42,866 bases of DNA, taken from the IMG/VR virus record IMGVR_UViG_3300046492_000163, positions 64,001-106,866 of that record; one strand, given 5' to 3'. This stretch comes from a virus (Duplodnaviria; Heunggongvirae; Uroviricota; Caudoviricetes). Every line of letters starts with the position of its first letter. Position 1 is the first letter of the stretch. The notes under the pieces are model-generated. The model made no database searches, was not told the origin of the DNA, and saw nothing but the letters and a program-made list of their open reading frames with translations. Shown here piece after piece: positions 21,903 to 25,632 of the stretch. Position numbers and translations under genes: made by a program.

Positions 21903-22027
21903 AGAATCGTTCCAGCAACCCAATTTCATATCCCGCTAAGATCGAGGTCACAGGTTCGAATCCTGTCGCGTGCCCAGTAGGCTCGTGTAGCTCAGTTGGT
22001 AGAGCGCGTAGAAAACCCAACGATTCT
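21903..22027 (+). ncRNA. CAGCAA-family element A: circularly permuted tRNA-like RNA (YrlA-like topology)
   Basis: 9-bp closing stem AGAATCGTT/AACGATTCT; T-arm ACAGG-TTCGAAT-CCTGT precedes D-arm GCTC-AGTTGGTA-GAGC; acceptor halves CGCGTGCC and GGCTCGTG joined by a short loop. Confidence 0.8.
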
Positions 22028-22066
22028 GTTAACACAAAAATAAGACTATTTAAGGGACTAAACTAT

Positions 22067-23449
22067 TTGACCAGTTTCGCGACTGCGTTTAACAACGCCA
22101 CTACAACAACTAACGGCGACTTCGCCTATAAATCCACTCTGGACGCGAACGTAGACTTGTTCTACCAGGCCGGTGCCAGCCGTGGTAAAGAAATTGGAAC
22201 ACTCTTCGACCGGGCAGTTAGTACCAACGAAGAAGTGGCCGTCCGCACCCTACTCTGGTTGCGTGATGCACGAGAAGGTGCCGGTGAACGGCAACAGTTC
22301 AAGAACCTAGTTCTGCGACTGAAGCCTGAAGTTGTACAGAAGTTGATCCCGCTGATTCCAGAACTTGGCCGTTGGGATGATCTACTGGTCTTCTTGGACA
22401 CTCCGTTCGAACGTCAGGCCATGGGCGTAGTTGCCGCAGGCTTGAACATGGGCAACGGCCTGTGTGCGAAGTGGATGCCACGCAAGGGAATTGTGGCCGC
22501 GAAGATCCGCAAAGTCTTGGGCATCAAGAGCCCGAAGTTGTGGCGCCAGTACCTGGTGTCGCTGACTGACGTAGTTGAACAGAAGATGTGTTCCAAGGAC
22601 TGGAGCAGCATTGAGTTCGGCAAAGTTCCATCCGTAGCCGCTGGCCGCTACATCCAGGCTTTCCTCCGCAACGCACCCGATGCGTACAACGAGTACAAAG
22701 AGCGCCTGGTAAAAGGCGAAGCAAAGATTAATGCCGCTGCTGTTTATCCGTACGATGTAGTGAAGGCTCTTCGTAATGGTGATCCAGTTGTAGCAACAGC
22801 CCAATGGAACGCACTTCCGAATTACATGGAAGGAGTTGATGAACGCATTCTGCCGATGATTGATACATCCGGCTCGATGGGTTGTCCAGCGGGTGGTTAC
22901 AGCAGTAACTCCGGTACAACTTGCATGGATGTCGCTGTTTCCCTAGGGATCTATGTCGCACATCGCAACGTAGGCGCCTTCAAGAACATCATGTTGAGCT
23001 TCCACGCACAACCCAAGCTGTTCCAGTTCTCTGGCAACTTCGCTGAAGCGGTGCGACAAGTTGATAGTGCTCCATGGGGCATGAACACCGACATCGAGAA
23101 GGCCTTCATTGAAGTCCTGGCTCGTGCAAGATCACACAATGTCGCTCCGGACCAGATGCCAACCAAGGTATTGATCCTCAGTGATATGCAGTTCGACTTC
23201 TGTGTAAAAGGTATGGGTGCGTACGACAGCATCAAACGCCAGTACGCAGCATCGGGTTACGAACTACCGCAGATTGTCTTCTGGAACATCAATAGTTCCG
23301 CTGGCACTTCCCCGGTAACTATCGGAACTAAGGGAACTGCACTAGTTAGCGGGTTCTCGCCATCGATCCTCAAGGGGGTTGTAAGCGGTGAACTTGAACC
23401 AGCGAAAGTTATGCTCGCGACTGTAATGTCAGAGCGTTACGATTACTGA
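22067..23449 (+). CDS. Ro60/TROVE-like RNA-binding protein (DUF2828-type helical domain + C-terminal vWA)
   Basis: TTNGD...STLDANVDLF, LLWLRDAREGAGER, ELGRWDDL, AKWMPR, VPSVA, MIDAS motif MIDTSGSM, LILSDMQFD, IVFWN, ALVSGFSP. TTG start with AAGGG upstream. Confidence 0.8.
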   Translation: MTSFATAFNNATTTTNGDFAYKSTLDANVDLFYQAGASRGKEIGTLFDRAVSTNEEVAVRTLLWLRDAREGAGERQQFKNLVLRLKPEVVQKLIPLIPELGRWDDLLVFLDTPFERQAMGVVAAGLNMGNGLCAKWMPRKGIVAAKIRKVLGIKSPKLWRQYLVSLTDVVEQKMCSKDWSSIEFGKVPSVAAGRYIQAFLRNAPDAYNEYKERLVKGEAKINAAAVYPYDVVKALRNGDPVVATAQWNALPNYMEGVDERILPMIDTSGSMGCPAGGYSSNSGTTCMDVAVSLGIYVAHRNVGAFKNIMLSFHAQPKLFQFSGNFAEAVRQVDSAPWGMNTDIEKAFIEVLARARSHNVAPDQMPTKVLILSDMQFDFCVKGMGAYDSIKRQYAASGYELPQIVFWNINSSAGTSPVTIGTKGTALVSGFSPSILKGVVSGELEPAKVMLATVMSERYDY

Positions 23450-23473
23450 GTAAGAATTCCCCTCGGGGATATA

Positions 23474-23527
23474 AGGATGGTTACAGCAACCCAACTACTT
23501 TTATTGGAAAAAGAAAACTCCATCCTG
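23474..23527 (+). ncRNA. CAGCAA-family element B
   Basis: AGGATGG/CCATCCT stem, TTACAGCAA, internal CTTTT-ATTGGA-AAAAG hairpin. Confidence 0.7.
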
Positions 23528-23537
23528 TTTTGAATAT

Positions 23538-23613
23538 AGACGATTGGCGAAGTGAGAACGCAACCGGCTTTGAACCGGCTACGAGTATGGTTTGATTCCA
23601 TCATCGTCTACCA
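23538..23613 (+). tRNA. trnQ: tRNA-Gln (TTG)
   Basis: AGACGAT/ATCGTCT acceptor; CCGG-CTTTGAA-CCGG; encoded CCA. Confidence 0.88.
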
Positions 23614-23615
23614 AA

Positions 23616-23907
23616 TTCGAAGGTCAGTGACAAACTATCGGGAATAAGTATCCTGCGGAATAACCCGACCTTCGAACCCAACATACCTGGGAACTCAAGC
23701 GCCTTGGATATGTAACTCCACCTGTCAAACCAACTGACAGTGTGTAGATCGTACAGACGGCTGCGATTGATAAATCGCCGTCACCTAATACAGGTAACAC
23801 TGTTGTACATCGGCAACCTGGTAGGAAGAGTATTTGGCCCTCCTGCCCCTTCGCTAGGTTGTTTGACAGTATCGCAGTGGGCAGCAGGACATTACTCAAC
23901 CTGCTGC
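23616..23907 (+). ncRNA. Candidate structured RNA between tRNA-Gln and tRNA-Trp
   Basis: Several strong helices, e.g. TTCGAAGGTC/GACCTTCGAA and GCAGCAGG/CCTGCTGC; no convincing ORF. Confidence 0.45.
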
Positions 23908-23920
23908 TCCTTTAAATTCT

Positions 23921-23996
23921 ATCTAGGTAGCTCAATTGGCAGAGCAGCGGATTCCAAATCCGTTGGTTGTGGGTTCGACTCCTACCCTGGATGCCA
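23921..23996 (+). tRNA. trnW: tRNA-Trp (CCA)
   Basis: GCTC/GAGC D-stem; GCGGA-TTCCAAA-TCCGT; TTCGACT T-loop; CCA end. Confidence 0.93.
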
Positions 23997-24015
23997 AACT
24001 ATCACAAGGATGTGT

Positions 24016-24297
24016 ATGCGAGACTTGCAACAACAGTTTGACGATTACCATAGTTCAAATCCAGAAGTATACGAGTTATTTAAGAAGTTTACCTTCTCAG
24101 CGATTGCCGCTGGTAGACAAGTATTCTCTGTAGCTACAATCATCGAGCGTATACGCTGGGAAGCCGATGTAATCATTGACCGTACAGATGAATTCAAGAT
24201 AAATAACAATCACAAGCCGTTTTATGCTCGAAAGTTCATGGATGACTATCCAGAACATGCTGGGTTCTTTCGAACTAGATCGCAACACTACCATTAG
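24016..24297 (+). CDS. Phage hypothetical protein (93 aa)
   Basis: AAGGA SD then MRDLQQQFDDYHSSNPEVY...ERIRWE...KINNNHKPFYAR; the longer track ORF overlaps tRNA-Trp. Confidence 0.8.
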   Translation: MRDLQQQFDDYHSSNPEVYELFKKFTFSAIAAGRQVFSVATIIERIRWEADVIIDRTDEFKINNNHKPFYARKFMDDYPEHAGFFRTRSQHYH

Positions 24298-24314
24298 AGT
24301 AAAGGAATACACGC

Positions 24315-24458
24315 ATGGCAAATAAGCCTTACGATGCAACCAAGGAACACGCCCCATTCGACCGCACCAGGAAAACCGATGGCAAAGGCCGTCACCCGAA
24401 TAAAGGGTTGAGTTCGAAACACCCCGTCTCTGGAAAGATCAGCCGATACTTCCAGTGA
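24315..24458 (+). CDS. Small basic protein (47 aa)
   Basis: AAAGGA SD; MANKPYDATKEHAPFDRTRKTDGKGRHPNKGLSSKHPVSGKISRYFQ*. Confidence 0.55.
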   Translation: MANKPYDATKEHAPFDRTRKTDGKGRHPNKGLSSKHPVSGKISRYFQ

Positions 24459-24669: not shown

Positions 24670-24863
24670 AACAATAAGAACTCAGGTACTGGTTGAGTAC
24701 CCAACCTAGGATAAGGCGAAAAGCGCTTGGCCTGAGTTTTAGCTTGTACTGTCCTCACTGATCCGGGGACTTCGCGTTAGCGGGTAGAGGTCGATGATAT
24801 AAACCCGTAATTAATTCCAAGTAACTACTGTAAAATAAGTGTAAGACATTTACAGTTAGGGGC

Positions 24864-24891
24864 TTGACAAATAGAAAAAGTATGTTCTAAT
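24864..24891 (+). promoter_or_regulatory. Sigma70-type promoter upstream of tRNA-Asp
   Basis: TTGACA-16 nt-TCTAAT in an AT-rich gap. Confidence 0.7.
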
Positions 24892-24913
24892 ACCAAAACT
24901 TAGAAACAACTAA

Positions 24914-24989
24914 GCCGTATAGTTCCTCTGGGAAGGAAGACAGACTGTCGATCTGTTAGCTGAGGGTTCAAATCCCTTATATGGCGCCA
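24914..24989 (+). tRNA. trnD: tRNA-Asp (GTC)
   Basis: ACAGA-CTGTCGA-TCTGT; TTCAAAT T-loop; CCA. Confidence 0.9.
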
Positions 24990-25099
24990 AACACGTCAAT
25001 GTTGCCCAAGACTACTAACGCTGAAAAGTATTGTGTCGGATAACAGCGCTGTATCCTCTGTCCGGGGCTTGTCTCCGGTTACGTTACAGCCTTCTATAT

Positions 25100-25174
25100 A
25101 GTCGGGTAGCTCAGTGGTAGAGCAACTGCTTGATAAGCGGTTGGTCAAGTGTTCGAATCACTTTCCGACTACCA
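25100..25174 (+). tRNA. trnI: tRNA-Ile (GAT)
   Basis: ACTGC-TTGATAA-GCGGT; canonical D and T arms; CCA. Confidence 0.93.
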
Positions 25175-25182
25175 AGTTCTAA

Positions 25183-25251
25183 AGAGTGCTTACAGCAACC
25201 CAAACTGGAAAGCCTTAAAAGCTGCGGTTTCAATACCGCAAATGCACTCTG
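25183..25251 (+). ncRNA. CAGCAA-family element C
   Basis: AGAGTGC/GCACTCT stem, TTACAGCAA, AGC-CTTAAAA-GCT hairpin, GCGGT-TTCAAT-ACCGC T-like hairpin. Confidence 0.72.
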
Positions 25252-25263
25252 CGATCAAGTTCT

Positions 25264-25375
25264 AGGATGAATACAGCAAACAACTGTCCCGCCAAAATCT
25301 GGGAACGTAGTGTAAAGGCGCACGCCGAAGTTTACTTCGGAAGTCAGGGTTCGAATCCCGCGAAAAATCATCCTG
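25264..25375 (+). ncRNA. CAGCAA-family element D with an embedded tRNA core
   Basis: AGGATGA/TCATCCT stem, ATACAGCAA, D-like arm, CCGAAG-TTTA-CTTCGG, GGG-TTCGAAT-CCC; no acceptor stem or CCA. Confidence 0.72.
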
Positions 25376-25393
25376 ATAACTTCACTGAATCTC

Positions 25394-25467
25394 GGGCTGT
25401 AAGAATTACGACAGTTCGCCTGCCTTGCACGCAGGAAGCCAGGGTTTGACTCCCTGACGGTCCACCA
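25394..25467 (+). tRNA. trnA: tRNA-Ala (TGC)
   Basis: CCTGC-CTTGCAC-GCAGG; G3:U70 pair; CCA. Confidence 0.9.
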
Positions 25468-25571
25468 ATTGAAAGAAAAGACTTCCGGCCTAGCTGGTTC
25501 AAGTCGAACGGGGTTCGCCCCCTTTATTACGCAAGATACTCTTGCACAGAATTATCCCTCGGGATGATATA

Positions 25572-25632
25572 AGGCTGCTTACAGCAAACCATACTATTTG
25601 ACTCGTAAATCAAACCAAAGAATGGCAGCCTG
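25572..25632 (+). ncRNA. CAGCAA-family element E
   Basis: AGGCTGC/GCAGCCT stem, TTACAGCAA, TTTGA-CTCGTAAA-TCAAA hairpin. Confidence 0.7.

Follow-up and report, generated by a model that had tools for sequence, protein, structure and literature searches.

The window analysed here, 42,866 nucleotides (nt) corresponding to bases 64001-106866 of IMG/VR virus record IMGVR_UViG_3300046492_000163 (a complete 106,866-bp Caudoviricetes genome with direct terminal repeats), carries five short intergenic elements, A to E, gathered around a gene for a Ro60-like protein. We propose, with a probability of roughly 0.7, that the five are small non-coding RNA genes of a single modular family, whose products are the partners of the Ro60-like ring protein in a particle analogous to that of Ro60/Rsr and the Y RNAs. 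What the elements share is a handle, namely a short closing helix together with the bases UUACAGCAA, whereas the inserts that it encloses differ from one element to the next and are partly tRNA-like. All five lie within 3.7 kb on the strand of the Ro60-like gene. By analogy, the system would most likely be an undescribed branch of the Ro60/Y-RNA particle, in which a distinct branch of the protein is combined with a distinct RNA handle. Its components are as follows; bit scores are from a covariance model built on the handle, among whose training members were B and E and not D.

21903..22029, + strand: element A, 127 nt, handle A-GAATCG / UUC-CAGCAA ... CGATUC-U-G, in the 5' leader of the Ro60-like gene.
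22067..23449, + strand: gene for the Ro60-like protein, 460 aa, a helical repeat ring plus a vWA domain, between elements A and B.
23474..23528, + strand: element B, 55 nt, the minimal member, handle GGAUGG/CCAUCC plus a small hairpin; 52.8 bits (training member).
25183..25252, + strand: element C, 70 nt, handle GAGUGC/GCACUC and two small hairpins; 31.6 bits; fold z = -2.86.
25264..25376, + strand: element D, 113 nt, handle GGAUGA/UCAUCC; 15.4 bits, E 0.045 (non-training); fold z = -2.17.
25572..25633, + strand: element E, 62 nt, handle GGCUGC/GCAGCC; 49.9 bits (training member).

On the + strand, each of the five is closed by a helix of 7 bp, the sequence (W)U(M)CAGCAA is invariant and unpaired, the 3' part is rich in A, and the tail reads CUG(U), with CUG in 5/5 elements and CUGU in 3/5. 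The second pair of the helix is always G-C, and the rest of its sequence is free. An earlier note on this DNA, made from its letters alone, had described five such elements with matching five-base arms, and all five are found where it placed them with every pair exact (AATCG/CGATT, GATGG/CCATC, AGTGC/GCACT, GATGA/TCATC and GCTGC/GCAGC). The covarying stem that it drew stands; the length it gave does not, because a seventh pair lies beyond that helix, joining the base before the G to the base after the C and reading A-U in 5/5 elements of the window. The invariant unpaired CAGCAA that it placed on a covarying terminal helix is borne out in 5/5 elements here and by the 44-member alignment described below. 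Single-sequence folds likewise retain the closing helix in 5/5 elements. As to position, A ends 38 nt upstream of the start codon of the Ro60-like gene, and B begins 25 nt past its stop codon and lies 10 nt ahead of a tRNA-Gln. Elements C, D and E lie 1.7-2.2 kb downstream of the gene among tRNAs, C starting 9 nt downstream of a tRNA-Ile and D ending 18 nt upstream of a tRNA-Ala.

The full pattern (G-N5, W-T-M and CAGCAA, followed at most 300 nt on by the Watson-Crick complement and TG) occurs five times on the + strand of the window and never on the - strand, against a mean of 0.002 in 500 dinucleotide-preserving shuffles with both strands counted, none of which reached 5. The 9-mer WTMCAGCAA is found 8 times in the window where 1.85 are expected, and 5 of these 8 lie on the + strand at 21.9-25.6 kb. 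A search with the handle model recovered no copy beyond the five, either in the window or in the whole 106,866-bp genome. The presence of several copies in one region, with inserts that differ in the manner of cargo, might suggest that the elements act as DNA, be it as a dispersed repeat, a miniature mobile element or recombination sites. We find this barely credible, as we do the idea of chance matches. The copies share 9-11 invariant bases alone, and their helix arms diverge yet stay complementary, which is the signature of selection on RNA pairing and not of copying; moreover, their strand specificity relative to the gene is strict, and the pattern would be expected by chance just 0.002 times per window.

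Covariation is apparent in an alignment of 44 short family members, which were picked by a scanner that demanded six inner pairs. Across this alignment, no member departs from CAGCAA, from the 5' G and the C paired with it, or from the 3' G, and 6/7 helix pairs change on both sides. The outermost, seventh pair, which lay outside the search criterion, is A-U in 30 members, U-A in 11, G-U in one and something else in two; some relatives end in CAG, a change balanced by a 5' U. Phages with a 73-92% identical Ro60-like protein have kept orthologues of A, B, C and E, and in some cases of D, with changes that preserve pairing. Thus, GAATCG/CGATTC of element A becomes GAATGG/CCATTC in an orthologue; B has orthologues in 6 related contigs; and the hairpin of C varies in sequence between orthologues, every version still being able to pair. 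In the one orthologue of D, changes are limited to the loops and the downstream bases of the handle, including a tetraloop that goes from UUUA to GCAA.

The 460-aa protein encoded between A and B matches the Pfam families DUF7788 (1.4e-41) and DUF2828 (5.7e-22), the only two reported at E <= 0.1, with no match to Pfam TROVE (PF05731); in PHROGs, it belongs to phrog_850, an 'RNA-binding protein' (1.6e-142). An AlphaFold2 model computed from 44 homologues (predicted local distance difference test, pLDDT, 87; predicted template modelling score, pTM, 0.86) has as its best Foldseek matches, over residues 10-454, the Xenopus Ro60 structures 1yvr, 1yvp and 2i91, with template modelling (TM) scores by query of 0.62-0.65 and E ~1e-8; among these are structures solved with RNA (1yvp and 2i91). 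Other matches over the whole length of the fold are the Ro60 of Thermus phage phiLo (9kop, 9l5y), Deinococcus Rsr (2nvo), human Ro60 and telomerase p80. The DxSxS metal site of the vWA domain is intact, reading D-T-S-G-S-M here, and its residues D266, S268 and S270 are invariant in the 44 homologues. When the family profile was compared with PDB sequences, phiLo Ro60 was matched at E 0.007 over 42 residues that comprise the metal-site segment alone. On the strength of the model, therefore, the protein is a Ro60-fold member of a separate sequence family, with marginal sequence kinship to the solved Ro60 proteins. The 'TROVE-like' gene that the earlier note saw between A and B is accordingly Ro60-like by its fold and not by a Pfam TROVE match. 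By tblastn, the protein is present in at least 710 deposited phage genomes with very different hosts, including FelixO1, the P100-like Listeria phages and phages of Staphylococcus, Enterococcus, Campylobacter and Mycobacterium. A literature search found no paper on the function of DUF2828/DUF7788.

The handle RNAs travel with this gene across phages. We considered a first set of 80 metagenomic phage loci with a homologue 47-50% identical, many of whose handle hits were training members of the model, and a second set of 39 loci from species-representative bacterial genomes and metagenome-assembled genomes, none of which was used in training. A simple handle scanner gave 107 hits on the gene strand of the first set as against 5 on the other strand, and the handle model at E <= 0.01 gave 89 hits in 72/80 loci, 100% of them on the gene strand. 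Most of the model hits lie within 500 nt of the start or end of the gene, with many copies no more than 80 nt upstream of the start. In the second set, the model gave 39 hits in 23/39 loci, again 100% on the gene strand. Among known phages, the scanner found 4 copies between tRNAs downstream of the homologous gene in Salmonella phage FelixO1 and 3 immediately upstream of gp165 in Listeria phage P100. In Mycobacterium phage Lumos, 3 copies stand right after the gene for a 'Ro-like RNA binding protein' and are followed by a terminator; these have a CAGU tail, with a 5' U replacing the A. In some large phages, copies are found tens of kb away from the gene. The linkage that the earlier note had proposed to test with a covariance model is, therefore, seen on the same strand in both metagenomic and independent genome loci, and in three known phages by scanner or by reading. 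In the reverse direction, from RNA to gene, 83 complete elements were retrieved through two handle 16-mers: for 31/83 the locus also holds the gene, always on the strand of the element and at a median distance of 416 nt, and for 7 more the gene lies farther off on the contig. Five of the fragmentary contigs that yielded such elements were searched for a canonical TROVE gene, and none was found. Separately, the 3' end of the gene in related loci (e.g., L008:6286 and L036:6289) encodes a motif GFSP(S/A)I, often as ...CCAGCAA..., which gives simple pattern scanners false handle hits inside the gene.

These positions bear on two readings in which the handle has no necessary role in a Ro60-type particle. 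On one of them, the handle is a processing or stability module of tRNA-operon transcripts, read by a host factor such as a tRNA-processing nuclease or another RNA-binding protein, and the gene merely travels along in an island of tRNA and RNA-metabolism genes. Consistent with this, B to E occupy slots of the tRNA array and are spaced like tRNAs, the four copies of FelixO1 lie between tRNAs, many of the elements retrieved with the 16-mers have no gene within several kb, and look-alike RNAs of Dictyostelium bind an RRM protein (PMC7919456). We nevertheless consider it unlikely, as the elements adjoin the gene itself in most loci, often with no intervening tRNA; the copies of P100 and Lumos are directly upstream and directly downstream of the gene, respectively; and 128/128 model hits in gene-bearing loci are on the gene strand. 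Further, a nuclease signal is unlikely to need a 9-nt single strand that remains invariant from actinobacterial to proteobacterial phages. On the other reading, the elements are not free RNAs but cis-acting mRNA operators, through which the Ro60-like protein controls the synthesis of its own or neighbouring gene products. The location of A in the 5' leader (38 nt from the start codon) and of B 25 nt past the stop would suit such operators, as would the many relatives with a copy no more than 80 nt upstream of the start. However, C, D and E are 1.7-2.2 kb downstream among tRNAs, copies in large phages are tens of kb from the gene, and elaborate tRNA-like inserts that differ between elements would be superfluous in an operator, all of which renders this reading distinctly improbable.

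If the elements are partners of a Ro60-like ring, as we favor, the inserts would be the variable part of the RNAs. The earlier note had taken every insert to contain tRNA-like parts. A and D clearly bear this out and C and E do so weakly, but in B no recognizable tRNA part was found. The insert of A comprises a T arm, an acceptor-like stem and a D arm, and aligns with Rfam YrlA at 32.5 bits over model positions 24-84 alone, i.e., the tRNA-like core. Ten relatives of A's size class share these three parts, and in their alignment the closing helix, T stem and acceptor-like stem keep their pairs through double changes; the assignment of this insert to the tRNA-like module of YrlA is thus upheld by covarying stems. 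Of the four hairpins in D, one resembles a D arm, another is a 6-bp stem capped by a tetraloop, and a third is a T arm (GGGUUCGAAUCCC). The second of the two hairpins of C is T-arm-like (GCGG-UUUCAAUA-CCGC), and the hairpin UUUGA-CUCGUAAA-UCAAA of E, whose loop has 8 nt, is loosely reminiscent of an anticodon arm. Strict 7-nt anticodon-like loops (YU-NNN-R-N) occur in 8/67 short members as against 1.27 +/- 1.0 in shuffles. Mimicry of the anticodon arm was considered as a general rule and rejected: such strict loops are absent from B, C and E of the window, and the rule holds for a subset of members. Related loci carry further conserved insert classes of ~155, 185-240 and 255 nt behind the same handle (for example, in L015-L035, such as L019:6405-6558, and at L001:6761-6943 and L006:4676-4929), for which no Rfam match was found in the loci scanned. 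At L030:6902-7000, a 99-nt member has a tRNA body as its insert, with a D arm, an anticodon arm with loop CUUUCAC and a T arm, and the handle occupies the place of the acceptor stem.

On the + strand, a promoter-like site, element A, the 460-aa gene, element B and a tRNA array holding C, D and E follow one another in this order, with B to E taking slots within the array at tRNA-like spacing. The remaining features of this region are:

21789..21816, + strand: sigma-70-like promoter TTGACA-16-TAGAAT ahead of element A, 11/12 consensus positions.
23538..27940, + strand: tRNA gene array, 13 tRNAs by ARAGORN and up to 15 by Rfam.
24016-24297, + strand: small conserved open reading frame in the tRNA array, phrog_13625, 93 aa.
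24315-24458, + strand: small conserved open reading frame in the tRNA array, phrog_11200, 47 aa, called in all close relatives.
27012..27031, + strand: first terminator-like hairpin downstream of the promoter, a consensus match only.
27050-27436, - strand: gene for an MvaT-type xenogeneic silencer (Pfam MvaT_DBD, 2.3e-21), inside the tRNA region and conserved in related phages.

The TTGACA-16-TAGAAT site, itself a consensus match only, is the best promoter match in 20-29 kb and is likely to be the start of one long transcript through the Ro60-like gene and the tRNA array. A consensus scan of the + strand found no terminator-like site between it and 27012, and the transcription unit may end at the hairpin of 27012-27031. 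The leader that separates the promoter-like site from element A contains, at 21832-21895, 3 copies of a hairpin GCC-GCAA-GGC with a GNRA tetraloop. A further short flank, common to B (23453-23473) and E (25547-25571), consists of GAATT, a hairpin CCC(C)UCGGG(G) and (G)AUAUAAGG running into the handle; its GGG-rich character is kept in orthologues from related phages, and it may serve in processing or as a phage promoter. The closest relatives of the Ro60-like protein, at 73-92% identity, are on contigs of ~101-107 kb. A search of deposited phages found no near relative of this region, tRNA pieces alone being matched. The record of a 79%-identical copy of the protein names a Pseudomonas isolate, and because of this copy and the MvaT-type silencer gene, the host of the phage is likely to be Pseudomonas.

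RNA data come from the P100-like phages, a search having listed no RNA data set for the phage of the window. In one of these, CKA15, the homologous protein CKA15_055 was found in virions, and three non-coding regions no more than 2 kb upstream of the gene carry the highest numbers of RNA-seq reads; the authors of that study suggested Y RNAs, undefined, for these three regions (PMC12282133). In P100 itself, the region of the three elements is covered by contigs from RNA libraries (two runs of one 2025 study), which attests to presence in RNA libraries alone, as contig depth is no measure of expression and contigs give neither levels nor ends. Many short contigs from the 2025 runs pile up on the P100 elements and on a ROOL-like RNA, in contrast to the even, genomic-like cover of two 2018 runs. 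This ROOL-like RNA (Rfam RF03087, 86 bits against a threshold of 99.1; L089:2411-2962, equivalent to L093 ~6092-6643) shares the strand of the Ro60-like gene and lies ~1 kb upstream of it. From its position, it is probably the 'CKA15_059-061' region of the CKA15 study, which accounts there for up to 67% of phage transcripts and was not named as ROOL (PMC12282133).

The mechanism best supported by linkage, fold and analogy is that of a Ro60-type particle, with binding through the handle, release by tRNA processing and a role as decoy or tether. One transcript would start at the ~21.8-kb promoter and take in A, the gene, B and the tRNA array, and the host tRNA-processing nucleases that free the neighboring tRNAs would also release B to E. 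The Ro60-like protein would then grip the handle, leaving the insert to present its tRNA part to tRNA-binding factors of the host or the phage: a T arm and a D arm in the case of A, a tRNA core in that of D, and single hairpins in those of B, C and E. In this capacity the RNA might act as a decoy, or else as a tether recruiting such a factor, or an RNA substrate, to the ring. The earlier note had also entertained a role as repair adaptors. No RtcB or Rnl2-type ligase was found in the complete phage genome, so that this idea gains no support, and a phage-encoded repair pathway has no part here.

Several points weigh against our proposal. We infer both the binding of the RNAs by the protein and their existence as discrete molecules in this phage from linkage, fold and analogy. 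The handle is unlike the Ro60-binding helix of the known Y RNAs, and the mode of Ro60-Y RNA binding is therefore not simply transferable. The one proven direct binder of the comparable Class I RNAs of Dictyostelium is an RRM protein, no Ro60 relative (PMC7919456). Those of the 83 retrieved elements that have no gene on their contig are on fragments (estimated to be 2-66% complete), and handle RNAs without the gene may exist. Lastly, the six inner pairs are 99% paired in the alignment, a rate that is partly circular as pairing was the selection criterion. The unbiased evidence is the seventh pair, the complete strand asymmetry, the hits in untrained loci and the compensatory changes between orthologues.

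The interpretation offered by the earlier note is supported as far as computation goes, every computable part of it having held. Its significance is manifold. With a searchable family of partner RNAs, the function of the DUF2828/DUF7788 protein becomes testable, including in model and therapeutic phages. RNAs that sit in tRNA arrays and carry pieces of tRNA may bear on tRNA-directed host defenses or on RNA quality control. More generally, a second branch of proteins, with another module for RNA recognition, would join the Ro60/Y-RNA theme. While the pairing of Ro60 with Y RNAs is itself known, the handle family in phages appears new relative to Rfam and the literature, in which we found no description of a CAGCAA handle in phages. 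At Rfam gathering thresholds, tRNAs alone are detected; the five elements reach the threshold of no family, and no fitting known ribozyme or small RNA family was found at E <= 10.

Among known systems, the closest precedents are the Y RNAs of bacteria and phages. tRNA-like Y RNAs adjoin the Ro60 genes of both on the same strand (PMC4201824), and YrlA-type RNAs adjoin TROVE genes in 254 bacteria and 22 phages (Chen et al. 2014; PMC4201824). The Ro60 of Thermus phage phiLo binds two adjacent Y-like RNAs (Yrl1/Yrl2) and the host PNPase (PMC12135203). Like these, the system described here has a vWA-bearing ring protein with the Ro60 fold, several different RNAs per protein, and small RNAs beside the gene on its strand with ends joined by a helix. 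Element A alone has, in addition, the T arm, acceptor-like stem and D arm module of YrlA (RF02553). The differences concern both partners. The phage protein has no Pfam TROVE match. On the RNA side, A at 32.5 bits and its relatives at 31.8-39.4 bits remain below the YrlA gathering threshold of 69, and A leaves model positions 1-23 and 85-114 unmatched, the Rsr-binding helix being absent and the CAGCAA handle standing in its stead. In the Lumos RNA, too, the alignment to YrlA marks the Rsr-binding helix as non-pairing. The protein-side module of the phage RNAs is thus a plain 7-bp helix with an unpaired UUACAGCAA, as against the bulged helix of YrlA with its GNCGAA/CGAA motif. Moreover, many phage members are tiny (~50-65 nt) and lack a tRNA-like domain.

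A second resemblance, to the Class I RNAs of Dictyostelia (RF01414), concerns the handle itself. In these RNAs, an invariant 5' G opens a 6-bp covarying helix that joins the ends, an 11-nt, largely unpaired motif CCUUACAGCAA comes right after the 5' arm, the interior is variable, and the 3' end is CUGU with its C paired to the 5' G; they are 42-65 nt long, and their genes are clustered (Kjellin et al. 2021; PMC7919456). The phage handle shares the 5' G, the variable paired terminal helix, the unpaired UUACAGCAA after the 5' arm, the variable interior, an A-rich stretch before the 3' arm (also seen in the Rfam consensus and examples) and the CUG(U) end with its C-G pair; the phage genes, too, are clustered, and the short members fall in the 42-65 nt range. 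Nine of the 11 motif bases (UUACAGCAA) are in place in B, C and E, with A and D differing at one, and C6, C9, A10 and A11, which are nearly invariant in the amoebae, are invariant in the phage members. Against the Rfam Dicty_Class_I_RNA model, B scores 23.7 and E 22.9 bits, both in full-length alignments, and the best relative (from locus L079) scores 29.9 bits, all below the threshold of 41.5. The amoebal CCUUACAGCAA differs in having one extra base between the helix and UUACAGCAA. Further, Class I genes are preceded, ~60 nt from the start, by a promoter element of their own (DUSE), and the class has been reported as unique to Dictyostelia (PMC7919456), whereas the phage elements lie at tRNA spacing in a bacterial-type operon, in a bacterial host, and can carry large inserts.

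As to protein partners, the RRM protein Rnp1A is the sole proven direct binder of a Class I RNA (PMC7919456), and pull-downs with DdR-21 recovered GuaB, NdkC, CIBP/Rnp1A (RRM protein) and the uncharacterized DDB_G0281243 (preprint 10.1101/2020.04.05.026054). No Dictyostelium protein is among the 30 Swiss-Prot fold matches listed for the phage protein. Cellular proteins do include fold clusters that bear the name DUF7788 or 'Plant/T31B5-30 protein', with names and accessions that look eukaryotic, and DUF2828 proteins are listed in several plant papers. Separately, an Arabidopsis outgroup candidate dismissed by the authors of the Class I study, 'ath_can_1' (score 40 with their model; PMC7919456, Supplemental Table S4), reads GUUUUC-AUUACAGCAA...GAAAAC-UG and is a complete handle, if a single candidate. 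We tentatively raise the possibility, which we hold to be less likely than not, that the phage handle RNAs and the Class I RNAs constitute one family, by descent or transfer, with the DUF2828/DUF7788 branch of Ro60-like proteins as their common partner; the Class I RNAs would then represent, in these amoebae, a Ro60-type particle that spans kingdoms. If this were true, an abundant class of eukaryotic RNAs that has had no mechanistic lead since 2004 would gain its first one and, tied as it is to multicellular development, be placed in a Ro60-type context.

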